A stretch of 64,000 nucleotides of DNA from Patescibacteria group bacterium (GCA_041674765.1 JBAYVE010000001.1:198177-262176); one strand, 5' to 3'. Counted from the first letter of the stretch, positions 10,078 to 28,647 are shown. Numbers and translations are program-made. The notes: generated from the letters alone by a model not told the origin.

Positions 10078-10130
10078 AAAACCGCCGTGCCACGCCGTAG
10101 CTCCGCCAGCTGGCGGAAGCGAAGGATGGT
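10078..10130 (-). repeat. interspersed core-repeat copy (reverse orientation) with a CCGCCAGCTGGCGG palindrome
   Basis: AAACCGCCGTGCCACGCCGTAGCTCCGCCAGCTGGCGGAAGCGAAGGATGG. Inverted partner at 11180..11219. Confidence 0.5.
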
Positions 10131-10403
10131 ACTTAATTATGTAGCGTCCCCTAACCCCTATAAATTCAGAATCTTCAACATGGAACTCTTGAAGTTTGAA
10201 CAGTTTAATGAAACAACTTTCCGTGGGTAGGCTCCTTGTATTAACTTGCTGGTTATCACAATTAGTCTACCCTTTTTCGTTTTAAGCATAAAACGAGATT
10301 GGTAGTACCACATTATTTAGTATAGAGCCAGTTAATTCTTGATAGATTATTCATTTTATGCTATGGATACTAGTATCAAACCCAGGGCAAGGAGGGTATC
10401 ATA

Positions 10404-11012
10404 ATGCCTGACAACTTACGAGACGCAGTCGACCTGCTGCTCAAGCTTCGGCCTTCTTATGTGAAGGCAGTCTGCTATCTGCTTCAGGATCTAGCCGGAG
10501 CCTCCTGTGAAAGTGCTCTTGAATTCTTCAGGTCTGTCCTTGTACAGGAATACTGGACAACAACAGTTCCCAGTGTCGAGACATTCGACGTTGGCGCACA
10601 TTTCAGAAAAGGAGAAACTGACGGTGTGAAGATTGCTTATTTTGGAATCATCAGTCCTTTGCAGATAGATGGTATCGTCGAGGAAAATGTCCCAGAGCAA
10701 ACCCTTGGATTCTGTCAGACAAAAAGGGCTTGTGGCTTTGCGGAGATTGCCGATGCTTTCCATCAACCTACTACCACCTACTTTGCTCATATCTGGAGTC
10801 TGATGAAGGAAGAAGCCCCAGAGTTCATGGGTGAATCAAAGTCATTCATTGTAGAAGTGGCGGGAAAAAAGCTGCATGTTTCCTGCAGTGATAGCGAAGG
10901 CACCTCCTACAATGATAAAGGGTGGCACATACATATCTGTATCTTGGGCGAGGAGGGGTATATTCAGCACAAAGGTACAAAGGTTGCTTTCCCACTCTTT
11001 TTGGAGCAGTAG
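10404..11012 (+). CDS. hypothetical protein (GC-rich relative to neighbours)
   Basis: 202-aa ORF with SD AAGGAGGGT upstream and a strong terminator downstream. Confidence 0.45.
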   Translation: MPDNLRDAVDLLLKLRPSYVKAVCYLLQDLAGASCESALEFFRSVLVQEYWTTTVPSVETFDVGAHFRKGETDGVKIAYFGIISPLQIDGIVEENVPEQTLGFCQTKRACGFAEIADAFHQPTTTYFAHIWSLMKEEAPEFMGESKSFIVEVAGKKLHVSCSDSEGTSYNDKGWHIHICILGEEGYIQHKGTKVAFPLFLEQ

Positions 11013-11039
11013 CAAAACCGGAATAAAATAGAATACCGA

Positions 11040-11078
11040 GACCTTCCCTGCAAATGCGCGGGAAGGTCTATTTTTTTT
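11040..11078 (+). terminator. rho-independent terminator
   Basis: GACCTTCCCTGCAAATGCGCGGGAAGGTC followed by TATTTTTTTT. Confidence 0.75.
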
Positions 11079-11179
11079 AAAACAAAAAAGTTTTCAAAAA
11101 TTCTTATTCAACTTTTTTGGAGGAGTAGCTTTTTGATTTCTGTGATTTTGTTTTTTTGGGGATGCTACACTTCCAAGCG

Positions 11180-11219
11180 CCATCCTTCGCCAAGCCTACG
11201 GAGTGGCACGGCGGTTTTG
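11180..11219 (+). repeat. interspersed core-repeat copy (forward)
   Basis: CCATCCTTCGCCAAGCCTACGGAGTGGCACGGCGGTTTT. Confidence 0.5.
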
Positions 11220-11388
11220 ACGATATTACTGGTATGGCTACCCAAGAATCCAAGCGGTTGCTATAATGTAACCATTGCAAAAATCTAAAAACAAAAAGAA
11301 AAAATGGTTAACCAGAGGTTTCTTGGTGGGTTTTTTGGCAGGGATTGAACATGTAAGTTCTAAGTTAATTAAACAATTGGAGGGGGCA

Positions 11389-11793
11389 ATGAAATCGAGC
11401 AAGAAAAATGTGTTTAAGATCACAAATTTTATCATTGGAACAGTGCTCGGGATTATCTTGGTTATCGCCGGCACTTTTGTGTATTTTCAAATAAATATTT
11501 CTACTCATAGTTTTCCCCCGGCAAATGGCGGGACGGGTGTCAACTGTGGTGAAACAGCTACCAAAGATTTTTTCCAATGCTTCGAAAGTGGCAAAAACAG
11601 GCTCGACTGTTACTTTAGCTGGGCTGCCAACATAAAGGCTTGCCAGCCACGACCCACCATGGCAGAGTGCTCTAATTATTTTGTCCCACATTATAATGAA
11701 TGTGTAGCTAAATGCTTCAAGTGGGAATGTAATATCGGTTGCAACCGGGAGCTGGCAACACTTCAGAATGGTTGCTTTTATACACTATGGTGA
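11389..11793 (+). CDS. membrane-anchored cysteine-rich protein, member of the KK-TM-PPTNG / hypervariable Cys-rich family
   Basis: SD GGAGGGGG before the ATG at 11389. Lys-rich N-terminus, TM helix IIGTVLGIILVIAGTFVYF, PPANGG motif, then 12 Cys in 80 aa. The longer 11275 start is less likely. Confidence 0.5.
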   Translation: MKSSKKNVFKITNFIIGTVLGIILVIAGTFVYFQINISTHSFPPANGGTGVNCGETATKDFFQCFESGKNRLDCYFSWAANIKACQPRPTMAECSNYFVPHYNECVAKCFKWECNIGCNRELATLQNGCFYTLW

Positions 11794-11847
11794 GCATTTA
11801 ATAACTTTGAATTATATTCAAAGAGCGCAAGTGTGGTATGTAGCTCC

Positions 11848-11912
11848 GACAGATTCCCGCCTTCCGCCTTCGCTCGCTTGAGCTACGGAGGGACAAGTCG
11901 CGGGAATGACAA
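11848..11912 (+). repeat. hairpin element GATTCCCGC/GCGGGAATGAC with the core insert in its loop
   Basis: ACAGATTCCCGCC-TTCCGCCTTCGCTCGCTTGAGCTACGGAGGGACAAGT-CGCGGGAATGAC. Near-identical copy at 13219..13281. Confidence 0.55.
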
Positions 11913-12181
11913 TACATAGACATGAGATCTACTGATGGAGCTTACCTCGAACTCGGAGCCCGAAATGACGGTAAAAACTAGATCCCCGGATCAAGTTCGA
12001 GTATAACAACCGTAGCTTGGATTAGTCCAAGTCCGAGAGCCTGCACTCGACTCGATTAGGGAAATGGACTCCAGCAAAAGTCAGAATTAGCCGCAAATAT
12101 GGCTTTTCCGTCAGCTGGCGGATGAAGTGTTCCCGGCGCTCAGTTAAAACTATAATAAAAGCTAATCTTAATGCCAAGATT

Positions 12182-12541
12182 TCAGTCTGTGTCTGCAAGT
12201 TCGCCCTGTGCGATGTCTATAAGCAAGTCTGCTAGATTTTGCAATGCAGTACATCTGGCATTCCCTTCTTGGACGCCACTTGTAGAAAGTCGAACATGGG
12301 TTGGTATTTGAGCCTCAAATTCACGGGCTATAGTAAATAAATCTTCGGTGGAGGCATCTAAAATCCGCTCGAGTTTCTCTTGGATTTCCTCCTCTCCAAA
12401 ATTGGCTGCCTCTAGTAGTTTTCTTATACTATCTTCAGCGTTCAGTAATTGCTCACGGGGATCCACGGGGACTTTGCCAGGGTCACCGGAATCATCAATA
12501 ACTTGTTCCAACGGCAAGGACCCATAATCTTCAAAAGCCAT
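12182..12541 (-). CDS. hypothetical acidic protein
   Basis: 119-aa ORF rich in D/E. Confidence 0.35.
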   Translation of the reverse strand: MAFEDYGSLPLEQVIDDSGDPGKVPVDPREQLLNAEDSIRKLLEAANFGEEEIQEKLERILDASTEDLFTIAREFEAQIPTHVRLSTSGVQEGNARCTALQNLADLLIDIAQGELADTD

Positions 12542-12863
12542 ATTCTCCCTTTTGTTAATTACTTATTTGAATGATTACAGGATAACAAAATGCCAAACAT
12601 TTAGCAATTTGGCACTCCTTTATAGGGGCGCTCCCAAAACGAAGCAAGATTCTCAATAGACCATTTTTGGCAAAAAAGCCAGGAGATACTAAGCACTGAC
12701 AGATCCCCGGGTCATGGCGTTGCTTGCCCAAGGATGACAGTATAAGCAAGAACTAAGTCAAGGATTTATAGTCTATCGCTTCCAACCACATTCTCTATCA
12801 TTTCTGTCCACATTCAATGGCATTCACGCTACACTATTTCTGTCATTCCAGCCCTCTTCAAAT

Positions 12864-12888
12864 GTCATTCCCGCGCAGGCGGGAATCT
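12864..12888. repeat. short form of the GATTCCCGC hairpin element (no core insert)
   Basis: TGTCATTCCCGCGCAGGCGGGAATC. Second short copy at 13332..13357. Confidence 0.5.
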
Positions 12889-12914
12889 CTGATGGGTAAG
12901 CTCTGGCGGTAAAC

Positions 12915-13208
12915 TTACGAAGAGATGATCTCCGAATACAAATCACGCATTTCCGGGTTATCTTTTCTTATCAAATTAAGCTTCCACTCTCTGTTCCATT
13001 TTTTGATTTGTTTTTCTTTCGTAATCGCACTATTAATATCGCTGCAAGAATCGAAATAGAGAAGGTGCTTAATATTATATTTTTTGGTGAAACCATCAAC
13101 TAGACCTTCTTTGTGTTGGTAAACTCTTCGAATTAAATCATTGGTAACTCCGACATAGAGAGTTAGGCTTATGCTGCCCATAATGTAAACATAGTATTGT
13201 TTTTGCAT
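12915..13208 (-). CDS. GIY-YIG family nuclease (UPF0213-like small standalone)
   Basis: YYVYIMGS..LYVGVTNDLIRRVYQHK is the GIY-YIG signature. 97 aa. Confidence 0.8.
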   Translation of the reverse strand: MQKQYYVYIMGSISLTLYVGVTNDLIRRVYQHKEGLVDGFTKKYNIKHLLYFDSCSDINSAITKEKQIKKWNREWKLNLIRKDNPEMRDLYSEIISS

Positions 13209-13218
13209 GGTTGCTTCA

Positions 13219-13281
13219 GCAGATTCCCGCCTTCCGCCTTCGCTCGCTTGAGCTACGGAAGGACAAGTCGCGGGAATGACC
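13219..13281 (+). repeat. hairpin element with core insert (copy of 11848..11912)
   Basis: AGATTCCCGCCTTCCGCCTTCGCTCGCTTGAGCTACGGAAGGACAAGTCGCGGGAATGAC. Confidence 0.55.
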
Positions 13282-13377
13282 TACTAATGTTGTAAAAGTT
13301 TCGGCAGATTGCCCAAGGAATTTACCCCCGACAGATTCCCGCCTGCGCGGGAATGACACAGGGATTGTGGGGATGGG

Positions 13378-14457
13378 CTATTTATACTCCGCATAGTAGA
13401 TACCTTTTTCGTGCTGGCCGAAGTACATAAACCAATTATCACTGATCTTTATAAAAGTCGGGTCACTCGCTGGATTGGCTACAAATACAACTGATTTATC
13501 ATTGTTGTTGGTCCAGACAAATTCCGGGGTGGAGAAAGTGCCATTTTCATATTTGGAGTGATAAATACCATTATAGCTCCAAAAATAAGCACGAATCTCT
13601 GTCTCGCCGGTCGCTTCATTTGTCCAGCTAACAAATTCTCCGCCATCAGCAAAATTATACAATTCATCATTTCGCGAATCGATTGCCAGTCCCTTCTTTT
13701 CAAAAGTAAGCCCATCATTTGAAATTGCATAGAAATATATCTGCGTGTTGTTATTTGGAACCTTCATCGTGCCTTGATAAGGCTGATTGATAGTACCGCG
13801 ATAAATCATAAGATAGGTGCCATCCGAAAGCTGAATAGTGGAAGTTGCGCCGACATTTTCTAGAGTAAAGCCAGTCTCATCTTTATCTATTCTAGCACCA
13901 GCTTCATCAGTGAACTTTAGTCCATCAATAGAAACTGCACTTTTGACCACGCCGCTATTTTGAAAATACATTCGCCATCGGCCATCCGGAAGTTTTATAA
14001 CATCAGCAAAGGTCGATTTTCGCTTTATTTCTCCTTCATCTGTCCAATTGATTCCATCAGAAGAAACCGCCGAGAATACACGCGCTTGGAAATCGTTTAC
14101 TTCTGGCTCTTCTGAGTAGTACATCCGATATTGGCCGTTACCCGGATCAACGATTTCAGAATCAGCGTATTTACCGGCAATGGCCACGCCGCCCTCCTGC
14201 CAAGTCTTAGCTATCTCGGTGGTACCGATAGTAGAGTCATCTTCGTTGGCAACGGTTTCTTTGGCATCTTTGGGCCACAAAAAGTAGGCAGCCGCCCCTA
14301 CCACGATAAGGACTGCAATAAGCAAGATAATCAGCCCTAGTTTCTTTTTGTTGCCATTAACTTCAATAGCTTCTATTTCCTGATCCATTTCCCTCCAAGT
14401 ATATTTATAAATATTTAGTTGATGCTTGCTTATTCGTGTAGCGCCCTCGCTTTGCAT
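13378..14457 (-). CDS. membrane-anchored Asp-box (BNR) beta-propeller protein, paralog of 1874..2902
   Basis: N-terminal TM helix. SSDGINWTDEGE, SIDGLKF, SNDGLTFEKKG Asp-box-like repeats. Confidence 0.5.
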   Translation of the reverse strand: MQSEGATRISKHQLNIYKYTWREMDQEIEAIEVNGNKKKLGLIILLIAVLIVVGAAAYFLWPKDAKETVANEDDSTIGTTEIAKTWQEGGVAIAGKYADSEIVDPGNGQYRMYYSEEPEVNDFQARVFSAVSSDGINWTDEGEIKRKSTFADVIKLPDGRWRMYFQNSGVVKSAVSIDGLKFTDEAGARIDKDETGFTLENVGATSTIQLSDGTYLMIYRGTINQPYQGTMKVPNNNTQIYFYAISNDGLTFEKKGLAIDSRNDELYNFADGGEFVSWTNEATGETEIRAYFWSYNGIYHSKYENGTFSTPEFVWTNNNDKSVVFVANPASDPTFIKISDNWFMYFGQHEKGIYYAEYK

Positions 14458-14463
14458 ATTTAG

Positions 14464-16182
14464 CTAATTCTTTTTCACATAATCGGCAAAATACGCCGGA
14501 TTGAGTTTTTCTCCGGTTGATTTTTCTATCATTTTTTGCCAGGGATATTTGGCGCCGAGTGAAAAGACTTCTCTTTGGAAATATTCGCCGATCTTTTTCT
14601 CTCCCGAGTAGCTTGCAAACTTTTCAGAACCTTTTGCTATGTTGTTATCAATATAGTGGCGAAATTGAGCGGACAGGAGATAGCCAAGCATGTAGTTATG
14701 ATAATATACCGGTGTCTGGATAACATGTATTTTGGTTGCCCAGTCGGGCATATCACGATTCTCCGGCCGGTTTACGAGCTGGTATTTCTCTACCAAACCC
14801 CACCACAGTTTATTCAAATCCTGATCGGGGTTTTCGTACATTGCTTTCTCGAAGCGATACATTACCTGCGTCCAGCGTGAAAAAATCAAAGCGTTCAAAC
14901 GATTGTATTCCGAAGCAGCGGAGCTAACTTCAGCGATTTTACCCGCCTCAATGTCAAAACTTCCTTTCACCCACTCAGGAGAATAGACCATATCTTCAAA
15001 AAAGAGGGCGACGGCTTCGGTGGTAAAAATATGAGCCGGCGTTCGAAGTTCCCACGGCAACTGTGGATCTATTTTTTGGTCGTACAGAGCGTGGCCAAAT
15101 TCGTGAAGCGATTTTGCCATCCAATAATTGTTGTTTTCCAGATTGACAATCACTCGGATATCATCGCGTCTGTCCATATTAAAGGCGACGGCATGCTGGT
15201 ATTTTCCGTCTCTCTGATAGAGATCGCTTTTTTCTGCCAACGGATCGATAGGCAATCCTAAGCTATTGAAATAATCTTTGGCCAAAGTCAACACATTCTT
15301 ATCTTTGTACAATTCATCCAAGTCGACGCTCAAGATGCGAGGTACTTCCTGAAAATAGCGGTTTTGATAGTGCCAAGGACGAAGATCCTCTACTTTAATC
15401 TGATATTTTGAGGCGAGCGCCTCGTCGATTGACGCTTTTGCCTCCGCATAAATTTCTCCGGTTGCGAGATCCAAATCGTCAAAGATCTTGTCCATCTCTG
15501 TGGGATCCTGCTCCGAGAGGGTCAGTGTCATCTTTTGAAAATCGGAAAAGCCTAGATCGCGAGCGATTTCGTTTCTGATTTTCGCCATTTTCACAATCTC
15601 TTGGCTGGTTAGATCGCCGATTTTTTTGCTTGCCTCCCAAACTTCTTTTAATTCATTCGAATTTGTCGAGGTCTTTAAGATATTTTCCACTTCGTTATCA
15701 GTGATTTCTTTCCCATTCAAAGAAGGTCGAAAGGTATTAAACTTCTGCTCGAGTTCACTTTGAGTTATTGTAATTTTCTCAATTTTTTTCTCATCTGATT
15801 GACTGGATATAAAACCAGCGTACTGGATATCCAATTGCCGTTTCAGAAGAGGGTCTTTGATATGACCGGCTTCTTTCCATTTTTTTAGCTTCAAAAAAGC
15901 ATCCTTATCCAAGAAAATCTTTTCCATTTGCAGATTTAGTTCAGTCGATTTCTTGTAATCTTCCTCCCGGCCGGAGGCCAAAGCAGTAAAATATGCGATG
16001 TTGGCTTCCTTTTCCAGGGGGATAATACGGTTTTCGTATGAGGCAAGAAATTCTTTGTACCCGGCTTCTGCCCGATAAGTTTTTGCTACCGGATATCCCA
16101 CGATAACAAATAAAATAGTAGCTACCAGAGACGTTAAAACATACCATAGAATTTTTTTTATTTTAAACATTTCCTCCCTCAT
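14464..16182 (-). CDS. zinc metallopeptidase, M3 (oligoendopeptidase F)-like or M32-like, with N-terminal TM anchor
   Basis: HEFGHALYD zinc-binding motif. 572 aa. N-terminal hydrophobic helix. Confidence 0.55.
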   Translation of the reverse strand: MREEMFKIKKILWYVLTSLVATILFVIVGYPVAKTYRAEAGYKEFLASYENRIIPLEKEANIAYFTALASGREEDYKKSTELNLQMEKIFLDKDAFLKLKKWKEAGHIKDPLLKRQLDIQYAGFISSQSDEKKIEKITITQSELEQKFNTFRPSLNGKEITDNEVENILKTSTNSNELKEVWEASKKIGDLTSQEIVKMAKIRNEIARDLGFSDFQKMTLTLSEQDPTEMDKIFDDLDLATGEIYAEAKASIDEALASKYQIKVEDLRPWHYQNRYFQEVPRILSVDLDELYKDKNVLTLAKDYFNSLGLPIDPLAEKSDLYQRDGKYQHAVAFNMDRRDDIRVIVNLENNNYWMAKSLHEFGHALYDQKIDPQLPWELRTPAHIFTTEAVALFFEDMVYSPEWVKGSFDIEAGKIAEVSSAASEYNRLNALIFSRWTQVMYRFEKAMYENPDQDLNKLWWGLVEKYQLVNRPENRDMPDWATKIHVIQTPVYYHNYMLGYLLSAQFRHYIDNNIAKGSEKFASYSGEKKIGEYFQREVFSLGAKYPWQKMIEKSTGEKLNPAYFADYVKKN

Positions 16183-16205
16183 TTTTTCATAGATTAGAAT
16201 TCAAT

Positions 16206-16610
16206 TCATTCAAACCTGCAGGTTCCTTTGCATTCGTCATATTGGGTATCGCATTTGGTAGAATTTGAGCCAAAGGTCATCCGGCAATTTCTAAGCTTGA
16301 CATCGCATTTACTGGAGACGCATTCGTTAGTGCATTTTTGGGATTCTTTTTGGCACCTCCAGTAGTCCTTGGTGTTGTTGTAACAGCAAGTTTGGAAATT
16401 CCGGCACATACTCGGGTCTGACCAAATATTGTTTGAATTCCAACCGCAAAAACCGTAGCCTCCGCCGTTTGTTGGCGGCAGGAGAGTCTTGCTGCAAGAA
16501 AAGAAATAGTTATAGGCAAAGAAGCCGGCAGCAATGATAGCCAAGCCGACAACAAAACCAATGATTCCGCCCTTAGTTAAAAATCGCTTTTTCGCTTTAT
16601 TTTTTGTCAT
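16206..16610 (-). CDS. membrane-anchored cysteine-rich protein (family member 1)
   Basis: MTKNKAKKRFLTKGGIIGFVVGLAIIAAGFFAYNYF..PPTNGG, then 16 Cys. Confidence 0.55.
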   Translation of the reverse strand: MTKNKAKKRFLTKGGIIGFVVGLAIIAAGFFAYNYFFSCSKTLLPPTNGGGYGFCGWNSNNIWSDPSMCRNFQTCCYNNTKDYWRCQKESQKCTNECVSSKCDVKLRNCRMTFGSNSTKCDTQYDECKGTCRFE

Positions 16611-16732
16611 TTATCCCTCCTATCTATATTATATAACGTAACCGCTCAATGTTATTTCAGTTTTACTCTTACTTTGTAGTCCAGACTTTAGTCTGTTTTA
16701 TTATTTACAAGCTTACTACTTCGTTAAAGCTA

Positions 16733-16800
16733 CCATCCTTCGCCCTACGGCTACGGCATGGCATAGCGAAGGACAAGCTAAAGCTTGGGCTACGGTGAGT
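16733..16800 (+). repeat. interspersed core-repeat copy
   Basis: CCATCCTTCGCCCTACGGCTACGGCATGGCATAGCGAAGGACAAGCTAAAGCTTGGGCTACGG. Confidence 0.45.
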
Positions 16801-16831
16801 GGTTACCTCGCGGCACTACGGCGGTTGCGAT

Positions 16832-17239
16832 TTATTGCCATTTGAACCCGCAAGCCTTCCTACATTTACCGAGGTTTTCGGTGCAGTGATACCATTCCGG
16901 ACCGTTTTCATCATAGGCCGCGTCACATGCTTCAAATTTGGCCTCACAGCAATCATGGCAAGTATCGATGCATTTATCTTTTTCCTTGGTGCACCCGGTT
17001 AGGCAGGGAATAAATCTATTGCACGTGCCGTTGCAGCATCTGCTATATTCAGCGCAATTTCCGGTGCAATTATCGCTGACATTCCAAGCGCACTCACCGT
17101 TGGTTGGCGCGTTACCGCAAGAAAAGTAATTGTACGTAAAGAATCCTCCGACGATCAGAACCAACCCGACGATGAAACCAATCACTCCGCCTTTGGTTAA
17201 AAATCGCTTTTTGTTTCCAGGTAGTGAAAATTTTGTCAT
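16832..17239 (-). CDS. membrane-anchored cysteine-rich protein (family member 2)
   Basis: ..NKKRFLTKGGVIGFIVGLVLIVGGFFTYNYF..APTNGE, then 19 Cys. Start overlaps the stop of the upstream GIY-YIG gene. Confidence 0.55.
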   Translation of the reverse strand: MTKFSLPGNKKRFLTKGGVIGFIVGLVLIVGGFFTYNYFSCGNAPTNGECAWNVSDNCTGNCAEYSRCCNGTCNRFIPCLTGCTKEKDKCIDTCHDCCEAKFEACDAAYDENGPEWYHCTENLGKCRKACGFKWQ

Positions 17240-17508
17240 TTTTCAACTTTCTTTTTGTATAAGTATTCTTTAATCATTCGCTTAATAAGTCTAGCTCCTT
17301 GGCTAGTTTTGAGATATTTTTCTCTTCGTCTGGCATCTTGCTCTTCCAAATAACTTTCGTAAAAAATTAATTTCCACGGTTTACCGTTCTTTGTTGAAAA
17401 ATTCAGCCCTTTATTATGTTCCGAGAGACGACGCTTGAGATCACTGCTATAACCGATGTAAAAACCATTGTTCTGTTCACTTTGTAATAGATAAACATAG
17501 TGGAACAT
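17236..17508 (-). CDS. GIY-YIG family nuclease
   Basis: HYVYLLQSEQNNGFYIGYSSDLKRRLSEHN, 90 aa. Confidence 0.8.
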   Translation of the reverse strand: MFHYVYLLQSEQNNGFYIGYSSDLKRRLSEHNKGLNFSTKNGKPWKLIFYESYLEEQDARRREKYLKTSQGARLIKRMIKEYLYKKKVEK

Positions 17509-17577
17509 AGTTATAAAATTTCTACTACCTGGTTTTTTAATATTTTTTTCATTTTCCTCCTAATGGTAAATTGACTG

Positions 17578-17850
17578 TCAATTGCCCTCTTGTTTTTGGC
17601 AATTGCCGTAACAATTTGTACAATCAGTAACACAATTGCGCACGCAAAAATTATTGCCTCCGCAACCCCCAACACAGCTGTTATACGCATAGTCGCAGCA
17701 TCTTCGGCAACTAGCAAAGCAATTAGTCGGAGCAACTTTTCCTGATGAAGCATAATTGTAAGCCAAAAAGCCGCCGACGAAGAGAACCAAGCCTACAGCA
17801 AAGCCTAGAATTGCCCCTTTGGTGATGAATTTATTCTTTTTAGTTTTCAT
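17578..17850 (-). CDS. membrane-anchored cysteine-rich protein (family member 3)
   Basis: MKTKKNKFITKGAILGFAVGLVLFVGGFLAYNY..APTN, then 17 Cys in 60 aa. Confidence 0.55.
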   Translation of the reverse strand: MKTKKNKFITKGAILGFAVGLVLFVGGFLAYNYASSGKVAPTNCFASCRRCCDYAYNSCVGGCGGNNFCVRNCVTDCTNCYGNCQKQEGN

Positions 17851-17956
17851 AATTTTATTAATAACCTATCTTTTATTGTTTGAGACCTGCCTTATGAGAA
17901 GGTCCGGAACTATAAAAACTCTCACTCTATTCGAAGAATGTTTTCTACTGCCTTGC

Positions 17957-19143: not shown

Positions 19144-19155
19144 ATGATATTAATT

Positions 19156-20731: not shown

Positions 20732-21189
20732 TATACTTCCCTTTCACTCTCAGTATAATCATTGGCATGCTACCAATAATATAATCGATAATAGCACATT
20801 TCAAGTTTTTGTCAATAAATTTTTCCCGTGATTCCGAAAACCTTGCCATTTCCCTGTTTCTTATTGTTCGAGGAGGAACGACGAGAACTTTGGTTATTTG
20901 TTAGTACCGACAGACTTCTCATTTTTAAGAGTACCATTCGAAGAATAAATACATTTAATAGGGTTTTAAGGAATCACAGTTGTGTAATGTTTCAATACCT
21001 TGGAAACAGCTTTGCCTCTGGAATTATGTTCTAACCCAGAGCATGCGATCCAACGTGCCGTCCGCCTGGTGTATTGATCGGTCGACTGAAGCTTGACTAA
21101 ATAAAAAACAATCATCCTTTGATGATCATTTTTTATGTTACTTTTACACAGGGGACAAGAGTTCGAGCTATTGCCATAATCTAAACTGA

Positions 21190-22074
21190 TTAGGGTGCAA
21201 TATCTGTCTTATAATCCAGAGGCACTGCATCGGAGACTAGCTTTTGATCGGGAAATTCTTTTCTAATTTTCTCAATATCTTCCTTGTCCATTGACCAACC
21301 AAGCGCGCCTAAATTATCCTTTAAGTGAGTCAGATTACTTGTCTTCGAGAGCGTTATCACATTATCCTGTGAAATCAACCAGTTGATGGCTATTTGCGCA
21401 GTAGTTTTATCATATTTTTTGGCCATCTCTTCGATTAAAGGAGACTTTGGCAAAAGACCTTTTTGTAATGGCCTCCAAGCACTCAGCAGAATATCATTTT
21501 TCTGACAAAAATCGAGGACGCCCTTGTCTTCAGCTTCCCGATATTGAAGATTGTAGTGCACTTGATTGCATACAATCTTATTGACTGTATGCTTTTGTGC
21601 TTCGATAAGACGATTCGGGGTAAAATTGCAGACGCCAATATTTTTGACAGCTCCCTGATCTACCAAATTGTCCATTGCTTTCATTGTCTCTGAAATTGGA
21701 ATGCCTGGTTCAGGAAAAAAATGCAAGAGATAGAGATCGATGTAATCAGTCCCAATCCGTCTGAGGCTAGCTTCGAAAGAGTGAAGTAAATCATCATATT
21801 TTTGATTACGTCCGGTTACTTTCGTCGCGATTATCAGTTTTTTTCTATCAACACCCTTCAGGGCTTCTCCGAGCAATTCTTCTGCGTGCCCATTTCCGTA
21901 GATCTCTGCTGTGTCGATATGGGTAACACCCAAATTAATAGCACTATGAATTGCCTCGATCTCTTCCTTGTCTTTGCTTGTATCGGCTTCCCATCTACCG
22001 CCCATCTGCCATAGACCAAGACCGTAAACGGGCAATTCAAATCCATTTTTGAGTTTTTTTACTGGTATTTCCAT
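21190..22074 (-). CDS. aldo/keto reductase
   Basis: GLGLWQMGG, IDTAEIYGNGHAEELLG, typical AKR length. Confidence 0.85.
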   Translation of the reverse strand: MEIPVKKLKNGFELPVYGLGLWQMGGRWEADTSKDKEEIEAIHSAINLGVTHIDTAEIYGNGHAEELLGEALKGVDRKKLIIATKVTGRNQKYDDLLHSFEASLRRIGTDYIDLYLLHFFPEPGIPISETMKAMDNLVDQGAVKNIGVCNFTPNRLIEAQKHTVNKIVCNQVHYNLQYREAEDKGVLDFCQKNDILLSAWRPLQKGLLPKSPLIEEMAKKYDKTTAQIAINWLISQDNVITLSKTSNLTHLKDNLGALGWSMDKEDIEKIRKEFPDQKLVSDAVPLDYKTDIAP

Positions 22075-22136
22075 ATATAGATATTAACAGATGTTGAGTA
22101 TTAGTTCGAATCCAACGGCAGGGGCGCGAATGCTTG

Positions 22137-23285
22137 TTATTGACAGAATGAATCGCCGTCTTTTGTCATACCCTGATGTTGAAGTAGATTAAATTTTGCC
22201 TTATAGGTAGCTTGAAATGAGCTGGAAAAATAGTCATACGGGCACACTGCAGTTGTGTAAATGCTGCTTGTTTGGCTGCCGACATACCGATTGGGTTTGG
22301 TCGAATTGTAGACCCCAAAATCCAGTCCATTATTTAATACATAGGGTGGGCCGCCGCTATAGGCAAACAATTCACCGGCCTTAAGAATAATAGGCGGAGA
22401 AATCTCTATCTCTCCTGCGGCGTTCGGATCTGCCCCAAACGCATCCTTAATTTTATCGATTGGCTCTGTAACATGCGCCACCCGTAGCGTGACCTCGCAA
22501 GTGATGCGAAAATCAAAATAATATGGCCCGCCAGTATAATAATCCCCCTTGATTAGGACCATATCGACTGGTGCATAGAGTGGTACTCTCGAAGAAAACA
22601 CGTCTATATAACTATGGGTTTTTAAGTGTCCGCTCGGCTGTGCGACATTGGGGGGCGGTAGAATATTAGTGATATAACTCGGATCGATCAGCTGATTAGT
22701 AAACACTGGATTTGCGTTGCTTGTACATTTTGTGGGATCTACTACAGCAGGAGTCGATGATGCTTTCGGTGTTGTTTGAGTAGAGGCTGATGATGCCACT
22801 GTTTTTTTTGAGCTACTTTGAGCTGCTTTTTCCTTTGCCGCTTCGGCAGCCGCAGCTTCCTCCTCTGCTTTTTTCTTGGCTGCCGCCTCTTCGCCTGCTT
22901 TGACCTGGCATCCAAGTATCATACCTTGGGCCGGAGAAAATGACTTTGAGTCAGGAGTAATACCGCCTAACTTGTCGATGCATCCTTGCCAGTTATTTTC
23001 ACCGGTTAGTCTCTTCCCGTCGTCAAGAATGGTCGAGAAAACTTTTTCTTTTTCTGCATTATTCTTCTTGTTTAGAACCTCTTTCTTTTTCCAATGCGAA
23101 AGTGACCTCTCGTACAAAGAAGCCGCCTCGCCATAATTTCCATTGATGAACGACAAGTCTGCCGCTTTGTGATATTTCACGGATTGAGAATATTGAAAAC
23201 CGGCGAACCCGCCTCCTGCAAGACCAAGCGATCCAACTACGATAAGCGCAATAAATATCGGTAAAATACCTTTTGCTTTTTTCAA
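22137..23285 (-). CDS. hypothetical membrane-anchored protein with Ala/Glu/Lys-rich linker
   Basis: N-terminal TM helix. Low-complexity AAAKKKAEEEAAAAEAAKEKAA. C-terminal globular domain unassigned. Confidence 0.4.
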   Translation of the reverse strand: MKKAKGILPIFIALIVVGSLGLAGGGFAGFQYSQSVKYHKAADLSFINGNYGEAASLYERSLSHWKKKEVLNKKNNAEKEKVFSTILDDGKRLTGENNWQGCIDKLGGITPDSKSFSPAQGMILGCQVKAGEEAAAKKKAEEEAAAAEAAKEKAAQSSSKKTVASSASTQTTPKASSTPAVVDPTKCTSNANPVFTNQLIDPSYITNILPPPNVAQPSGHLKTHSYIDVFSSRVPLYAPVDMVLIKGDYYTGGPYYFDFRITCEVTLRVAHVTEPIDKIKDAFGADPNAAGEIEISPPIILKAGELFAYSGGPPYVLNNGLDFGVYNSTKPNRYVGSQTSSIYTTAVCPYDYFSSSFQATYKAKFNLLQHQGMTKDGDSFCQ

Positions 23286-23449
23286 TATTCCTCCGAGAAC
23301 TTAAAAGTATAAAGAAATTATATCAATATAAGTGTAGTTTGAAAAACTCTGTGCCAATAATCTTGTTATGGTTCTATGCATCCGTACCTGTGTATCTTTG
23401 CCTCGAAGTAGAGTAGCTGTAGTTGTGGCAACTATGCTATGATTATCTT

Positions 23450-23698
23450 ATGAAAATAAAACCAATTACAAAAAAGCCATGGTTTGGACCAAGGAAATTG
23501 GGCTGGGGATTTGCTCCTGTCACCTGGGAAGGCTGGGTCTCAATGTTGATACTTTTTGCGATTGTTCTCTACCTCATCACAACAAGGGCAACCGATCCTT
23601 ATCTAGTTTTTTATATCTTAAGTCTAGTTGCCGTGTTCACAATCTTTTGTTTCTTGACTGGCAGTAAGCCAGGCTACAAACCATTTGATAAAAAGTAG
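23450..23698 (+). CDS. hypothetical small membrane protein
   Basis: MKIKPITKKPWFGPRKLGWGFAPVTWEGW, then two TM helices. Confidence 0.35.
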   Translation: MKIKPITKKPWFGPRKLGWGFAPVTWEGWVSMLILFAIVLYLITTRATDPYLVFYILSLVAVFTIFCFLTGSKPGYKPFDKK

Positions 23699-23825
23699 AA
23701 CCCTTGCATCAAGAATTTTAATTCGCCACCATCTGGCATGTTGACCGGTCAAACTGAAGTTTGGGCTGCACAAAGAAGTGATAGCAAAAGCGGTATATTA
23801 GTTAAAAAATATTATAAGGAGAAGA

Positions 23826-24200
23826 GTGGGCAGCTATATAGAAATAAACGACACATTACAGATCAATAAAGAGCAGGGATTTCCTATCGATCTTGAAATT
23901 AGTAAGCATCTATCAAATCCTTACAAGGCAGAGGATTTTGAAGGCAAAGTGTTTAAATTTCAGGGCAAGCCAAGTATTAGATTTTATCACCAACCTCCCG
24001 TGAGAGTGTTTCTAGTTGAAAATATTGATGGCAAGTGGGTCTATTGGGGACTAGTTCATATCTTATCAATCACCCATAATTATATAGATAAAACAACTTC
24101 TGGCGAATATAAAATAATTTACTTAAATTCCCCGGAAGAGATGAAAAAGGCTCATGATTTAATAGATAGGAATCCAGAAACCAATTATTTTGTAAAATAA
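23826..24200 (+). CDS. hypothetical protein
   Basis: 124-aa ORF immediately upstream of the dehydrogenase gene. Stop and next start are 2 nt apart. Confidence 0.4.
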   Translation: MGSYIEINDTLQINKEQGFPIDLEISKHLSNPYKAEDFEGKVFKFQGKPSIRFYHQPPVRVFLVENIDGKWVYWGLVHILSITHNYIDKTTSGEYKIIYLNSPEEMKKAHDLIDRNPETNYFVK

Positions 24201-24202
24201 AT

Positions 24203-25099
24203 ATGAGAATAATTATTGCTCAAAATCTTAATTTCGATGATGACCAATTGGAAAAGTTGGGAAAACTTGGCAGCTTAAAGGTGTATGAAAACCCAAAATC
24301 TGAAGAAGAATGGCTAGAAAGGTGCCAGAATGCCGATATTATCTGCAGTGGCTCTAGATTTATGAAAACTGAAGTTTACGGCCTCACGAATAAATTCATT
24401 ACTATTCCAATGACTGGTTATTCCTGGCTAGACCTTGAAAAATTGAAAGAAAAAAACATCATTTTTGCGAATTGTCCAGGTTGTAATAAGTACGCCGTGA
24501 CCGAATGGATACTGGCAATGACCTTAGAATTAACACGTAAATTCACAAAGTTTATAAATACCAATAAGTCTTATGATATAAATTTTCCAAGCATTGGTCT
24601 TAAAGGCAAAAACATTGTCATCTTAGGAAAGGGTAGTATAGGAGCACTTACTGGTAATGTGCTTACTGCCCTTGGTTCGAGCGTTAGTTTTTATCAAAGA
24701 GGTGATAGTCTAGTAGGCAAGATTAAAAATGCTGACATTGTTATAAATTGTCTAAGTACAAATCCAACAACAATAGGACTACTAGATAAAAACTTTTTCG
24801 ATCATCTTAAAAAAGGTGTTTATTTTGTTACAACTACTCCTTCTGACATACTAGATCAAAAGTCAATGATGGGGGCTTTGGATCAGGGAATTATTGCTGG
24901 AATAGCAACGGACTGTGCTTCTGTGGGACCAAGAGATACTGCCGATCCCAGGTACATAGAAATGTCTTCTAATCCCAAAATTATCGCCACTCCTCATATT
25001 GCATGGTTCTCCGATACTTCAATTAAGGATGAAAATGATATTATGATTGACAACATCGAAGCTTGGATTGAAGGCAAGCCACAAAATATCATCACTTAG
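24203..25099 (+). CDS. D-isomer-specific 2-hydroxyacid dehydrogenase family protein
   Basis: NAD-binding ILGKGSIGALTGNVLTALGS. C-terminal ATPHIAWFS. Confidence 0.65.
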   Translation: MRIIIAQNLNFDDDQLEKLGKLGSLKVYENPKSEEEWLERCQNADIICSGSRFMKTEVYGLTNKFITIPMTGYSWLDLEKLKEKNIIFANCPGCNKYAVTEWILAMTLELTRKFTKFINTNKSYDINFPSIGLKGKNIVILGKGSIGALTGNVLTALGSSVSFYQRGDSLVGKIKNADIVINCLSTNPTTIGLLDKNFFDHLKKGVYFVTTTPSDILDQKSMMGALDQGIIAGIATDCASVGPRDTADPRYIEMSSNPKIIATPHIAWFSDTSIKDENDIMIDNIEAWIEGKPQNIIT

Positions 25100-25197
25100 T
25101 TCGAACCTAGGTTTTGCTATTTTGGTACGGTTCTCTACTTGTCGACCGTAGCCTTATGCGAAGGTTGATTTGAATACGGTTTTAGCAATAAACTGAC

Positions 25198-25221
25198 AAA
25201 CGCCCCATGTGGTGGGGCGTT
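25198..25221. repeat. short form of the CAAACGCCCCA hairpin (no core insert)
   Basis: AAACGCCCCATGTGGTGGGGCGTT. Possible bidirectional terminator. Confidence 0.5.
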
Positions 25222-25248
25222 CTAAAAAAGGGATAAAATGACCATAAT

Positions 25249-25290
25249 AAAACACCAATTTCTTGGTGTTTTTATAATGGCTCTGCACAG
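25249..25290 (+). repeat. composite hairpin + tRNA-Asn 3'-like repeat, unit A (degenerate)
   Basis: AAAACACCAATTTCTTGGTGTTTT TATAATGGCTCTGCACAG. Confidence 0.45.
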
Positions 25291-25428
25291 TAGATGAAGT
25301 TCGAACTGTAACCGCTGAATCGGTCACAATAATTAAAATTTAATTACTCTGACCGATTCCATACCTTACTTTATTGGGGTATGGAACGGTAACACTGGCC
25401 CGCAGACGATTATTCCTTGCTGTATGTC

Positions 25429-25905
25429 TTAGGGGTTACTGTGTCGTTCAACGAACTCTTTAATCAGGAACAGCGCGTCATCGGGGTCGTCATATATCTT
25501 GCAATCCATCAAGGGCTGCACGAATTGTGATCCTTTCTTGCCCCGAGTGTAACCAGAGATCTTATCGGGGTCAACCCTGGTCGACCACAGGCACAGAACT
25601 GGTTTTCCATGATGTAATGCATCAGAGATTTCACTACCAACTCCGAGGCTGGGGTTGCTAATCTCAAAAATGCAAACATCTGAGCGAAAAATTCGCTCAT
25701 ACTCACGATCGTGGACTTCTGTCGGAGCGAGCATAATTTCTTGGCTCACAATGCCGGGCTGGGTTTGATGCTTTGTTGCAAGTTGAAAACCGAGCTTGGT
25801 TTCAATGGATTCTTGGATTGAACGTAACTCGTCCTGAGAAACCGCTCCACATCCACCTCTCATTGAACAACCGAAGAAAACAACGGGTTGATTTTCACTC
25901 ATCAA
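25429..25905 (-). CDS. 2'-deoxynucleoside 5'-phosphate N-hydrolase (DNPH1/Rcl-like; nucleoside 2-deoxyribosyltransferase superfamily)
   Basis: VFFGCSMRGG.., EISNPSLGVGSEISDAL, GKPVLCLW align with the DNPH1 YFCGSIRGG / PSLGVGYELG / ILCLF blocks (recalled from memory). Confidence 0.6.
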   Translation of the reverse strand: MMSENQPVVFFGCSMRGGCGAVSQDELRSIQESIETKLGFQLATKHQTQPGIVSQEIMLAPTEVHDREYERIFRSDVCIFEISNPSLGVGSEISDALHHGKPVLCLWSTRVDPDKISGYTRGKKGSQFVQPLMDCKIYDDPDDALFLIKEFVERHSNP

Positions 25906-26027
25906 GGTTACCTCCGTTCATAATATAACATAAATGTCTTAATTTAGCAAATTGAGTCTCTCAACAGCAGGCGGTATTTTTCAGCGCCTTGGAAACAATT
26001 CTAGTTCGAGTTTACAGCGGGTAACAC

Positions 26028-26073
26028 AAAAAATAACTAGTCCTAGACTAGTTATTTTTATGGCTCCCCGAAC
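26028..26073 (+). repeat. composite repeat unit B: perfect 13-bp-stem hairpin + tRNA-Asn 3'-end fragment
   Basis: AAAAATAACTAGTCCTAGACTAGTTATTTTTA TGGCTCCCCGAAC. Confidence 0.6.
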
Positions 26074-26209
26074 CCTCCTTCGCTTTTTATGCTACGGAGG
26101 GGCAGGCTGGATTTATCACATCTCTACAAAAAACCATCCCGCATAGCCAACATAAAGTTGGCAACGTGGGATGGCTCCGTACAGCGAACGAAGTTCAAAC
26201 TAACGCCAT

Positions 26210-27619
26210 CTAGTCTGTTATCTTTGTCATTTTTCCGCTATTTATGTTCACGTTGTAGAAACTGGAATGATTATCCCAAAGTAGCACATTATTTTCGTTC
26301 CCGTTCCAGCCGATTATAGCAAAGAAGCTACCAGGGAATTCAAGATCTTTCGAAGTTCCAGCCGCCAAATCAAGCACTTTCAATCCGGTTTCACCTTTAC
26401 CAAAGGTATCTGTAGAAAAAACAATTTTATCTGCTTTTGAGTTTACAATCCAATCACGAACTGAAACATCTTCTATGTCTGCATTTCCTATAGAAGCAGT
26501 TTTGTACTCTTTTAATTCCTTTGTAGCTTTGTTAAAGCTAGCTAGCCATCCACATTGACGCATGCATGTATGGTCGTAATCAGAAGTAATCCCAAAAACC
26601 ATATTATTAACTAAGGCTGGGTAAAGCAAATTAAATTTACCATCTTTTATGGTTGTTGAGGTGACATTTCCGCCAAGTGCCACCTGGGTAACGGAGTTTT
26701 GAGCCATATGCCCACCAGGCAAATTATTCCAAGTACCGAAAGCTACACTCGTACTTGTTTCATCCCAAACCATGTTGTTTCCTGCCGAAGACCATCGATA
26801 TGTGTCGGGAACATCGATTGGAATTAATTTCTCTTGTACAACATCATAAAATTCAATCTTGAGTTTCGGATTGGTTTGGCTGTCTAACATCTCAGCATAA
26901 GCAAAAAACTTGCCATCAGGAGACCATTTAGGGCTTGTTCCGCTTGAACTGCCAGAAAGATTTTCTGCGATTATCTTCTTAGTTTTTGACGACAGATTAA
27001 ATAGCACGATATCATAATTATTTCCGCCAATTGTATTGCCATCAACCGTCTCTGTATGATATTTAGCATAAACAATACTGTCCTGTGCTTGGTTAAAATC
27101 TAGAGATGAAATAAGGGTATTCTCCTGGACAACTAGTTGCTTTTCTCCAGTAAGAGTGTTCTTTTGCCAAATCTGATGGTAGCCTGCAATCCCTCCCTCG
27201 ATATAATTAATATAAAATACGACTGGTTGTTTGTCTTGAGCCATAATATGCTTAACCATGAAACTGGAACTTTTGCTGCCCGATGTACTTACTATACCCG
27301 TCTTGGCATTAAGCTTAGAACTACCACTGAAATTATAGAGGTTATCCACCAAAGAACCGAGATCATATTTTGTAGTACTGGTAGTGTTTGCTGTTTTTTT
27401 CGTATCTGATGATGTGCCAGGGCTTTCTTCGGTAGGAATAAAATAATTATCTTTAGAACCATTCAAAAGCACAACGCTTGATTTATTGTTGACAGTATTC
27501 CCGCTATCCTTTGAGTCAATGACTTCGTAGCTCAAAAATCCCATTACTAATAACAATAATACTATTAGCGAGTTTTGAACCGGATGGTTTTTATAGCCAT
27601 CAATAATTTTTCTAAACAT
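26210..27619 (-). CDS. membrane-anchored TolB-like / PD40 beta-propeller domain protein
   Basis: N-terminal TM helix. SPKWSPDGKFFAYAE PD40-type repeat. 469 aa. Confidence 0.45.
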   Translation of the reverse strand: MFRKIIDGYKNHPVQNSLIVLLLLVMGFLSYEVIDSKDSGNTVNNKSSVVLLNGSKDNYFIPTEESPGTSSDTKKTANTTSTTKYDLGSLVDNLYNFSGSSKLNAKTGIVSTSGSKSSSFMVKHIMAQDKQPVVFYINYIEGGIAGYHQIWQKNTLTGEKQLVVQENTLISSLDFNQAQDSIVYAKYHTETVDGNTIGGNNYDIVLFNLSSKTKKIIAENLSGSSSGTSPKWSPDGKFFAYAEMLDSQTNPKLKIEFYDVVQEKLIPIDVPDTYRWSSAGNNMVWDETSTSVAFGTWNNLPGGHMAQNSVTQVALGGNVTSTTIKDGKFNLLYPALVNNMVFGITSDYDHTCMRQCGWLASFNKATKELKEYKTASIGNADIEDVSVRDWIVNSKADKIVFSTDTFGKGETGLKVLDLAAGTSKDLEFPGSFFAIIGWNGNENNVLLWDNHSSFYNVNINSGKMTKITD

Positions 27620-27699
27620 TGAGTTACCTCCTTCTTATTTTTGTTAATCTTATTATACAGTTATCCTTTAATCAGTTCGAGTCCAGTATGGGTTATACT

Positions 27700-27742
27700 A
27701 AAAATAACTAGTACTAAACTAGTTATTTTTATGGCTCCCCGA
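27700..27742 (+). repeat. composite repeat unit C
   Basis: AAAAATAACTAGTACTAAACTAGTTATTTTT ATGGCTCCCCGA, preceded by AGTTCGAGTCCAGT (tRNA T-arm-like). Confidence 0.6.
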
Positions 27743-27898
27743 TAGTACTGCTATACGAATGATCTTAAATGATTTCGACTATTGGAGAAGAATTGGTTTT
27801 CTAATTGCCGCTACCTCTTAGCTCAACGGTTTGAGATAAAAGGGGCGAGACGTTGCTCTTGAGCAACGCCCGGAGCCCAATACTTTGAACATATTGGT

Positions 27899-28351
27899 TC
27901 AGATCGAGACACGATACTTTTCTGCATCTTGATGCAATCGGTCATACGATGCGCGATCCATCAACCCGCCTGGCCCTTCCAGGACAATTTGTATGCCAGG
28001 CAGTGCTTCTTGTAGTTCTTCTACTCGCTTTTCTCCGTGGAGAAAATGCTTGATGGCGGCATTGCGTCTCTCTTCGGAATCTGAGAATCCTCGAGCGCTT
28101 CCGAATCGCTCGAAGAGACACTCACGGAATTTGACTTTCCGTCCTTTAGTCGTGAGTGCAGTGTAATCCAGGATATACTGAAAAGTTGCAATCATACCGA
28201 CTGCTCCAGTTTCAGAGCGATTCTTAGCGGTTAGATTTGGGCTAATCAGCAGTTCCTTTTTGCATCCCTGGCTTTTTAGAATCTCTGCTAACTCAGCCAG
28301 TGACTTAGCCTTGAGAGGGAACAAACTCAGTACAAAACGTAGCATCGCCAT
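27899..28351 (-). CDS. hypothetical protein
   Basis: 150-aa ORF with no recognisable motif. Bounded by composite repeat units C and D. Confidence 0.4.
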   Translation of the reverse strand: MAMLRFVLSLFPLKAKSLAELAEILKSQGCKKELLISPNLTAKNRSETGAVGMIATFQYILDYTALTTKGRKVKFRECLFERFGSARGFSDSEERRNAAIKHFLHGEKRVEELQEALPGIQIVLEGPGGLMDRASYDRLHQDAEKYRVSI

Positions 28352-28493
28352 ACTCCTTCACGGTTGAGAACTGGTCTATTATTATGATAACATATTTAGC
28401 TATTTATAGCAACTCCATAATCACTCTAGAGATATGCATCACGCTCCAATGCTCGCTTAAAAATACTGGTTTGAGTCCACTCTGGCCTATACA

Positions 28494-28538
28494 AAAATAA
28501 CTAGTTTAAGACTAGTTATTTTTATGGCTCTACACAGC
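28494..28538 (+). repeat. composite repeat unit D
   Basis: AAAAATAACTAGTTTAAGACTAGTTATTTTT ATGGCTCTACACAG, preceded by GGTTTGAGTCCACT. Confidence 0.55.
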
Positions 28539-28647
28539 CGCGCCCTTCCATAGCTTTAGCGAAGGAGGGTGGCAGAAGTTCGAGCTAGCTTTGTATTAAA
28601 CCTACAATTGGCTTGAACTATAAATGATTCGAATATAAGATAATTGT

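Follow-up and report, generated by a model that had tools for sequence, protein, structure and literature searches.

In this study, we asked what the short sequence is that recurs between the genes of a 64,000-nt stretch of DNA from a Patescibacteria group bacterium (GCA_041674765.1 JBAYVE010000001.1:198177-262176; the window, analysed at its full length) and that in several places sits in the loop of another hairpin. The first-pass annotation of this DNA had described a conserved linear core of about 35 nt, listed ten copies of it, and proposed either a miniature element with hairpin loops as its target or a protein- or RNA-binding motif displayed on stem-loops. We find that the conserved unit, referred to here as element A, is not a linear 35-mer; it is a structured hairpin whose tip varies in length and is sometimes itself another hairpin. 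Element A is best read as a short, oriented, imperfect palindrome, which is neither a gene nor a classical RNA motif. We show here that an element A family exists across many phyla with a common consensus and covarying stem pairs, and that its members nest inside other units and hairpins, with whole composites being duplicated afterwards.

The consensus of element A begins with YCCTCC, a 3-nt mismatch (TTC) and GC, and after a tip whose length is free it continues with GC, a second 3-nt mismatch (TAC), GGAGGR and finally CA(A/G)G; in the window, a local subtype CCAYCC..GGAGTGGCACGGCGG also occurs. The result is an imperfect hairpin of 30-40 bases, overall about 26-45 nt, with a CCTCC/GGAGG stem of 5-7 bp and a GC/GC clamp beneath the tip, and because the CA(A/G)G tail is one-sided the element has a direction. 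The 3x3 mismatch follows YNC/TNY, the other strand reading GNA/GNA. A scan in which the mismatch was left unspecified gave about 50 family members among 130 hits, with the mismatch types TTC/TTC (11), TAC/TAC (5), TTC/TAC (5), TAC/TTC (4), TTC/TAT (4) and GTC/TAT (4), and it follows from these counts that the two outer positions stay mismatched, as pyrimidine-pyrimidine on this strand and as G.A/A.G on the other. The stem itself covaries: C-G (30 sequences) alternates with T-A (17) at its outermost pair, C-G (21) with T-A (19) at the pair that closes the tip, and the central T-A pair becomes G-C in variants such as CCGCC/GGCGG (locus L080) and CCGGC/GCCGG (locus L294). None of 500 shuffles reached the observed covariation, and sliding the partner strand abolishes the pairing.

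A covariance model, which had been suggested in the first-pass annotation as a check, was built from 51 sequences, namely cross-phylum copies and seven window copies. This model (R1) gives 11 copies in the window, ten of them between 10 and 29 kb and none between 30 and 64 kb, and all 11 are intergenic. The ten copies listed previously were all recovered by a looser scan together with R1; the eleventh, at 1781-1848 on the plus strand, falls outside the range covered then. For nine of the window copies the E-values lie between 1e-8 and 1e-5, seven of these nine being in the model alignment, so that their matches and scores are partly given by construction. In the window, there are four occurrences of the exact pattern CCTTCGC-N(1-14)-GCTACGGAG, compared with 0.00 expected from 100 shuffles.

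The wider motif search that had likewise been proposed was run across 185,579 species genomes, with one genome per species, and the figures reported here come from the first 120 stretches among the matches listed. In these stretches, 55 of 122 pattern matches share flanks that are absent from the pattern (C at -3, T at -1 and G at +1, followed by RCA.G), and these conserved flanks overturned our first impression that the matches were due to chance. R1 gives 68 hits in 707 kb of the scanned loci, and the extended consensus is present in many phyla. Among the matches listed, the carriers are Saccharibacteria and other Patescibacteria, Opitutaceae and other Verrucomicrobia, Planctomycetes and Victivallales, and further Chitinophagaceae, Flavobacteriaceae, Nitrospiraceae, Acidobacteria, Cloacimonadota and Sumerlaeota; Muriicola and Flagellimonas are cultured isolates among them. 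Element A was absent from 72,556 plasmid records. When the window was searched with Rfam 15 at gathering thresholds, only tRNA-Asn was found and no family for element A, and at E up to 5 over 9900-29800 nothing fell on any copy. Full-text literature searches with sequence and peptide strings of element A returned no description, nor was the element found in the supplement to the REP survey by Di Nocera et al. (PMC3733652). Element A is thus a large cross-phylum family without a description in the literature searched. A self-cleaving ribozyme, a CRISPR repeat and an attC site were considered and rejected, there being no Rfam match and the sole match to a CRISPR direct repeat being sub-threshold and located on one of the host hairpins described below (hairpin B). 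An origin from a universal RNA was rejected as well; the 3' half resembles the 16S 341F region, and since this likeness has no Rfam support we treat it as coincidence.

The copies in the window range from simple to composite. Simple copies are found at 11176-11213 (plus strand, 36.6 bits), where the subtype is CCATCC..GGAGTGGCACGGCGG, and at 25134-25172 (minus strand, 35.8 bits), which is a short form. Two further R1 copies adjoin remains of tRNA genes: the one at 26069-26109 (plus strand) abuts a 13-nt fragment of a tRNA-Asn 3' end (TGGCTCCCCGAAC), and the one at 28536-28573 (minus strand) lies beside a degenerate copy of a module composed of a tRNA end and a terminator. In the copy at 10083-10133 (minus strand), located 43 nt downstream of the gene at 7911-10040, the tip holds a different hairpin, hairpin C (TCCGCCAGCTGGCGGA, 10102-10117), as seen by R1 and in the predicted fold; hairpin C also replaces the D-loop and T-arm in degenerate tRNA-Asn copies. 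The copy at 1781-1848 (26 bits) carries a second A-like unit (CCATCCTTTGC..GCGATGGCAAAG, 1800-1826) nested in its tip, with nested stems in the predicted fold. Finally, a complex array of element A halves extends over 16729-16830 (plus strand; weak R1 hit at 16729-16769), in which ACAAG, a small hairpin, GCTACGGTGAGTGG and GGCACTACGGCGG come, in this order, after a closed palindrome CCTTCGC..GCGAAGG; its arrangement is likewise taken from R1 and the predicted fold.

The remaining four copies fill the loops of two other hairpin families, and for both families the reported occurrence with and without the insert was borne out by alignment. In family B (GATTCCCGC..GCGGGAATGAC), the filled hairpins are located at 11852-11910 (minus strand; element A at 11863-11900, plus) and 13222-13280 (minus strand; element A at 13233-13270, plus), and the empty ones at 12863-12890 (plus strand, reading TGTCATTCCCGCGCAGGCGGGAATCTCT) and 13331-13358 (minus strand); filled and empty copies agree in the stem and in roughly 10 nt of the flank on the 5' side (GACAGATTCCCGCCT). 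Family D is a terminator-like hairpin (CAAACACCCCCA..TGGGGCGTTTG). It is filled at about 18267-18326 (plus strand; element A at 18272-18310), downstream of an S51 peptidase gene whose nearest named relative is from Candidatus Berkelbacteria (79% identity), and again at about 19084-19144 (plus strand; element A at 19089-19127), whereas the hairpin at 25197-25222 (plus strand) is empty (CAAACGCCCCA TGTGG TGGGGCGTTC) and shares CCCCA/TGTGGTGGGGCGTT with the filled copies. That four hairpins are filled is therefore real, although they do not represent four events. The filled B hairpin at 13222-13280 is a copy of 11840-11910 (93% identity over 71 nt), and the second filled D hairpin duplicates the unit at 18.27 kb, flank included (77% identity over 96 nt), so that there have been at most two independent fillings. 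Each composite, A in B and A in D, arose a single time, and it was the whole unit that was copied afterwards. No consistent target-site duplication was seen at the B or D junctions in these alignments.

These alignments also bear on an alternative that had been named at first pass, in which the copies would be matches due to chance or low complexity, and filled and empty hairpins would have no relationship to each other. Apart from the short length of the motif, nothing speaks in its favour. No shuffle reached the observed pattern count, the R1 E-values are low, the consensus extends past the search pattern in other phyla, and filled and empty hairpins align through both stems and flanks; we regard this alternative as refuted.

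Nesting is not confined to the window. At locus L294, on an unrelated contig, a variant of element A sits in the loop of a family B-type (SRM) hairpin with the junctions CTTCC... and ...GACAAGTC, as in the window. At locus L227, one unit lies inside the 3' mismatch of another, and at L245 there are three tandem 5' halves. In the Dojkabacteria locus L080 (5640-5960), GGTCCATGGTTC/GAGTCCATGAACGCTCA is intact in a tRNA-Ile gene, and in a second copy of the T-arm about 60 nt downstream of this gene the T-loop is split by a 31-nt A-like unit. A second small insert is found further along. The window itself contains mosaics of element A with at least three other hairpin families. From their layout, such nested arrangements would be the marks of something copied into unpaired DNA, yet most copies stand alone. 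The hosts had been called unrelated hairpins, which is only partly right, as family B is a known repeat element with a known nuclease. It had also been said that either explanation would be unusual; this is overstated, given that nested mosaics of small palindromes are known from BIMEs, Nostoc SDRs and NTS/dRS3.

The known element in question is NTS/SRM. Both empty B hairpins match the SRM search sequence HGTCWYN(0-2)YYVSBRHN(0-5)WNVSBRGN(0-2)RNCYNB, for which a mean of 0.18 hits is expected in the window (mononucleotide shuffles), and both are at most three mismatches away from the 28-nt Neisseria meningitidis NTS consensus (motif from PMC11893778). Between the empty hairpin at 12863-12890 and the filled hairpin at 13222-13280 lies an ssnA-like gene (12915-13208, minus strand), which encodes a 97-aa single-domain GIY-YIG nuclease (Pfam PF01541, 50.5 bits); the hairpins are inverted, which is the NTS-ssnA-NTS layout. 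Among full-length ssnA-like homologues from IMG/VR, eight of eight are bracketed by inverted GTCAT..ATGAC hairpins, with a stem sequence that varies by locus. It has been shown that SsnA binds the NTS/SRM hairpin only as single-stranded DNA and on one strand, cutting a few bases upstream, and the NTS-ssnA-NTS layout has been likened to an insertion sequence (Chenal et al. 2025, Nat Commun 16:2388, PMC11893778); in that study, binding and cutting of single-stranded DNA were shown for four Ssn/SRM pairs other than the one in the window. Host hairpin B is therefore the known NTS/SRM element beside an ssnA-type gene, and by analogy the window protein would be expected to cleave it. The association of ssnA with SRM hairpins, which is confirmed here, has already been published and is not new. 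In the IMG/VR loci L334-L432, SRM/NTS-type hairpins were very often seen as inverted doublets 20-35 nt apart, in the manner of REPINs, and also as tandem arrays of the 3' half (GCGGGAATGAC repeated).

Element A resembles this system in several respects. Like NTS/dRS3/SRM, it is oriented, imperfect, GC-rich, 25-45 nt long, intergenic, multi-copy and cross-phylum, and like NTS/SRM with Ssn it adjoins, in some lineages, a gene for a single-domain GIY-YIG protein of about 80 aa. Its sequence is different, however, as is its architecture, with a conserved 3x3 mismatch and a 3' tail in place of the 5' CGTCA tag of SRM. The GIY-YIG clade near element A also looks different from Ssn (YTGxT..KYLKSGSG), and element A stands on one side of it only, behind tmRNA. 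Moreover, cleavage of SRM as single-stranded DNA has been shown biochemically, whereas for element A it is proposed from the sequence.

The GIY-YIG-only protein of about 80 aa is the sole protein family that recurs near element A across phyla. Its gene is present in five of 55 A-positive loci compared with none of 65 A-negative loci (Fisher p = 0.018), and the window contains three GIY-YIG-only genes within 17 kb. None of these window genes has element A directly at both ends; at locus L035, copies are found on both sides of such a gene. A regular arrangement is seen in a clade with the signature KYLKSGSG.AFRNKRL, where at seven of seven loci (L056, L112, L066, L453, L454, L460 and L466; six Bacteroidota and one Saccharibacteria) the order is tmRNA, then element A or an A-like hairpin, then the GIY-YIG gene. 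Four of these loci were chosen from a protein search without viewing the DNA and three, the Saccharibacteria locus among them, from the element A side; the protein-side loci gave one strong R1 score (46 bits) and three weak, A-like ones (18-20 bits). The hairpin directly follows tmRNA at six of the seven loci. The GIY-YIG gene lies 200-400 nt downstream of tmRNA, and the 100-400 nt between the hairpin and the gene contain small hairpins, among them GGTGGA..TCCACC, element A half-copies or duplicated tmRNA 3' ends (the latter at L454 and L056).

The position of the copies relative to genes could indicate that element A is primarily an RNA-level 3'-end element, either an intrinsic terminator or a stabilizer of mRNA or tRNA 3' ends, and that nesting reflects terminators rebuilt on top of one another. 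This is the main rival to the interpretation given below, and we consider it unlikely but deserving of attention. Of the 11 copies in the window, nine come soon after the end of a called gene; among 55 copies, eight have a tRNA or tmRNA within 150 nt where 1% would be expected (p = 1e-7), and at L068 two copies follow a tRNA. At the six Bacteroidota loci of the clade described above, where the hairpin follows tmRNA (directly in five), the purine-mismatch strand is in the tmRNA sense and T-rich sequence comes after it, with a clear T-run in four and a short TTT in two. Such a T-run directly after the hairpin is absent, however, at most window and cross-phylum copies. Copies downstream of an open reading frame (ORF) show no orientation bias relative to it (14 in the same sense and 16 opposite), which argues for action on DNA rather than on transcripts. 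Furthermore, termination needs neither a conserved 3x3 mismatch nor a one-sided tail, convergence would not give near-identity over 30 nt across phyla, and the stability of the hairpin is unexceptional. The lack of both an orientation bias and an Rfam match is also the reason why the binding motif displayed on stem-loops, as an RNA motif, is not favoured.

We therefore return to DNA, and propose that element A belongs with the DNA hairpin repeats of the REP/SRM kind. A small nuclease would recognize it in single-stranded form, it would be copied to places where the DNA is unpaired, and at 3' ends it would have a secondary role; to this overall reading we give an even chance. The enzyme and the copying mechanism are what we infer. 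Element A would fold when the DNA becomes single-stranded, and a small sequence- and structure-specific nuclease, by analogy with Ssn most likely a single-domain GIY-YIG protein, would recognize it. Nicking and repair may then copy the element elsewhere, with a preference for unpaired DNA of the sort found at hairpin tips. Once transcribed, the same hairpin might double as a 3'-end structure and, in Bacteroidota, as the terminator of tmRNA. A narrower version, which we put forward tentatively and consider possible rather than probable, is that element A is the recognition hairpin of a second family of single-domain GIY-YIG single-stranded DNA nucleases, the 'KYLKSGSG' clade or its relatives, and that the nested cases (A in SRM, A in A, A in a tRNA loop) record a sequence of about 35 nt being copied precisely into unpaired tips.

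A number of results weigh against the proposed DNA hairpin element. No enzyme has been tied to element A so far. Element A does not match the SRM search sequence, the only two window matches being the empty B hairpins. The predicted folds reproduce the nested stems, but their stability is only 1-2 standard deviations above that of shuffles, so that the case for structure is made by conservation and covariation and not by energy. The proposal of a miniature element targeting hairpin loops holds in so far as a discrete repeat is found inside other hairpins, and fails as a general rule, as an enclosing stem of at least 7 bp surrounds 5.6% of 90 family members compared with 2.1% when flanks are paired at random. 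No presence/absence polymorphism of element A was found between close strains; the strain comparison proposed at first pass was carried out, and the single other assembly available matches the window at 100% identity. This assembly (L434, Logan SRR6484325), an independent one of the same population, ends inside the A-filled SRM hairpin at about 11880, which shows that such repeats break short-read assemblies. Orthologous filled and empty sites were not available either, since in every relative (77-83% protein identity) the gene order surrounding the S51 peptidase gene is no longer conserved; one of these relatives, L212, has an empty CGCCCCA..TGGGGCG hairpin after the peptidase gene, with uncertain orthology. 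On the side of the enzyme, element A was found at none of 80 loci (294 kb) around homologues of the window GIY-YIG gene at 17236-17508, and no GIY-YIG-only gene was found in 1.13 Mb of A-bearing viral contigs. The order of tmRNA, element A and GIY-YIG gene in Bacteroidota may, in addition, be a single inherited arrangement in which element A is simply the tmRNA terminator. Among copies on viral contigs, GIY-YIG genes were near one of 100 SRM loci and none of 120 element A loci, and no relatives of the 'KYLKSGSG' clade were found in viral contigs.

The negative result at those 80 loci, which concerns one GIY-YIG clade, would also fit a third explanation, in which element A is a non-autonomous mobile element moved by a different enzyme, such as a RAYT/IS200-type HUH transposase (as with REPINs) or a loop-specific integrase, and GIY-YIG genes merely share the same tRNA/tmRNA dumping grounds. 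We rank it next after the RNA-level explanation and regard it as rather improbable. Its attraction lies in the REP-like architecture of element A, with an oriented tag, an imperfect palindrome and a GC-clamped tip, as in the GTAG-3 and GTAG-14 loops (PMC3733652), and in the association with tRNA and tmRNA ends, which is typical of integration hot spots. Like REP, REPIN and BIME sequences (Bertels and Rainey 2011, PMC3116915; Di Nocera et al. 2013, PMC3733652), element A is a short extragenic imperfect palindrome found mostly downstream of genes; variable, GC-clamped and sometimes palindromic loops, mosaics of several repeat types and a proposed action as single-stranded DNA hairpins are further points in common. 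The window copies even carry GTAG on one strand. However, GTAG is not conserved in the family, where GAAG is commoner and ATAG is also present, and it lies within the stem region and not in an unpaired terminal tag. For the same reasons a GTAG-tagged REP was rejected as an identity for element A, GAA/GAA (11) outnumbering the GTA forms and the tetranucleotide lying between two stems. Unlike REP sequences, element A has no conserved terminal GTAG or CGTC tag, and neither REPIN-type doublets of it nor a RAYT gene were found; the search by phmmer for a RAYT-like ORF in the window and 340 loci is a weak test, as it used an approximate E. coli RAYT query and RAYTs are single-copy genes. Searches with PHROGs and NCBIfam of the unknown proteins encoded at 10-29 kb gave nothing related to mobility. 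In addition, a given REP sequence is as a rule confined to one species or genus, in contrast to element A, which keeps about 25 identical bases across phyla.

Other known elements differ more clearly. A miniature inverted-repeat transposable element was rejected, since such elements measure 70-300 bp and have insertion sequence terminal inverted repeats and a target-site duplication, while element A has only 26-45 nt and no consistent duplication. Group IIC introns insert after terminators. IS1397 and ISKpn1 are described, in work cited in PMC3116915, as inserting into REP loops. Element A resembles both in having hairpin tips or flanks as its insertion site and is unlike them in that it is 26-45 nt long and encodes nothing, whereas they are autonomous, kilobase-sized and bring their own enzyme. 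The Nostoc SDRs, compared here by description only, are likewise tiny hairpin repeats within palindromes; element A is longer and cross-phylum. The SDRs reportedly also insert into one another. According to the accounts in PMC4390886 and PMC5861425, SDR4-6 are hairpin-forming repeats of 21-27 nt without a known enzyme, SDR5 being inserted precisely into HIP1 palindromes, and PMC5861425 states that SDRs are confined to the Nostocaceae. A cyanobacterial origin, or identity with an SDR, was rejected because the organism belongs to the Patescibacteria, the proteins of the metagenomic contig that holds the window (ENA ERZ27247358) being labelled as such.

Element A is not the only small element in this region. 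Between 10 and 30 kb, the DNA is strewn with small selfish elements and their remnants, three different GIY-YIG-only genes among them. The second of these genes (17236-17508, minus strand, 90 aa) lies in a 316-bp unit (17217-17532) within 18-nt imperfect inverted repeats (CCAGGTAGTAGAAATTTT / AAAATTTTCACTACCTGG), and this unit is inserted after codon 7 of a gene for a small cysteine-rich membrane protein. Excising the unit in silico restores an intact frame (MKKILKKNKKRFLTKGGVIGF...) that is colinear with the paralogue at 16206-16610. Three tandem paralogues of this small, N-terminally anchored cysteine-rich protein occupy 16206-17850, one of them being the interrupted gene, with a 94-nt stretch that is 64-74% identical. 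The same repeat pair is found at no fewer than 39 of 80 metagenomic homologues (L128-L207), typically at the start codon of the host gene with (T)ATG on both sides. On this sequence pattern the unit looks like a tiny autonomous mobile element, of which we found no description.

The third GIY-YIG-only gene (29711-29986, minus strand) lies between a 5' fragment of tRNA-Asn (29985-30030), which has a TCCGCC..GGCGGA hairpin in its D-loop, and the intact tRNA-Asn gene (29634-29708, minus strand). The latter stands amid degenerate copies of itself (29482-30030), and in the copy at 29507-29615 TCCGCC..GGCGGA hairpins take the place of the T-arm and D-loop. Four copies of a module of some 70 nt are present, at 26003-26071, 27674-27742, 28467-28535 and 29482-29534, each made up of the apparent 3' end of another tRNA, a common terminator hairpin (AAAAATAACTAGT..ACTAGTTATTTTT) and an oppositely oriented 3' end of tRNA-Asn. 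Between them, the modules mark off three segments of 0.8-1.7 kb with one gene each, which resemble cassettes piled up at a tRNA site with no integrase. At 63601-63659, the heptamer CTTAGAC is repeated in tandem about eight times.

In practical terms, element A repeats not only interrupt assemblies but also seed false ORFs, such as ..SFAKATEDK... It was not until 2025 that site-specific nucleases for single-stranded DNA (Ssn) and the hairpins they target were described, and this for a single motif class (PMC11893778). If element A were a second hairpin of this type, it would provide a new enzyme and target specificity for single-stranded DNA tools, the system would extend to the Patescibacteria, the Bacteroidota and the PVC group, and the nested copies would offer a direct handle on how such repeats, REP, NTS and SDR sequences included, come to spread. 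Even if it is only a shared terminator module, a near-identical block of about 30 nt across phyla needs to be explained. Should the reading that involves the 'KYLKSGSG' clade be true, element A would be a hairpin-within-hairpin mobile DNA spread across phyla and smaller than any element with a known mechanism.

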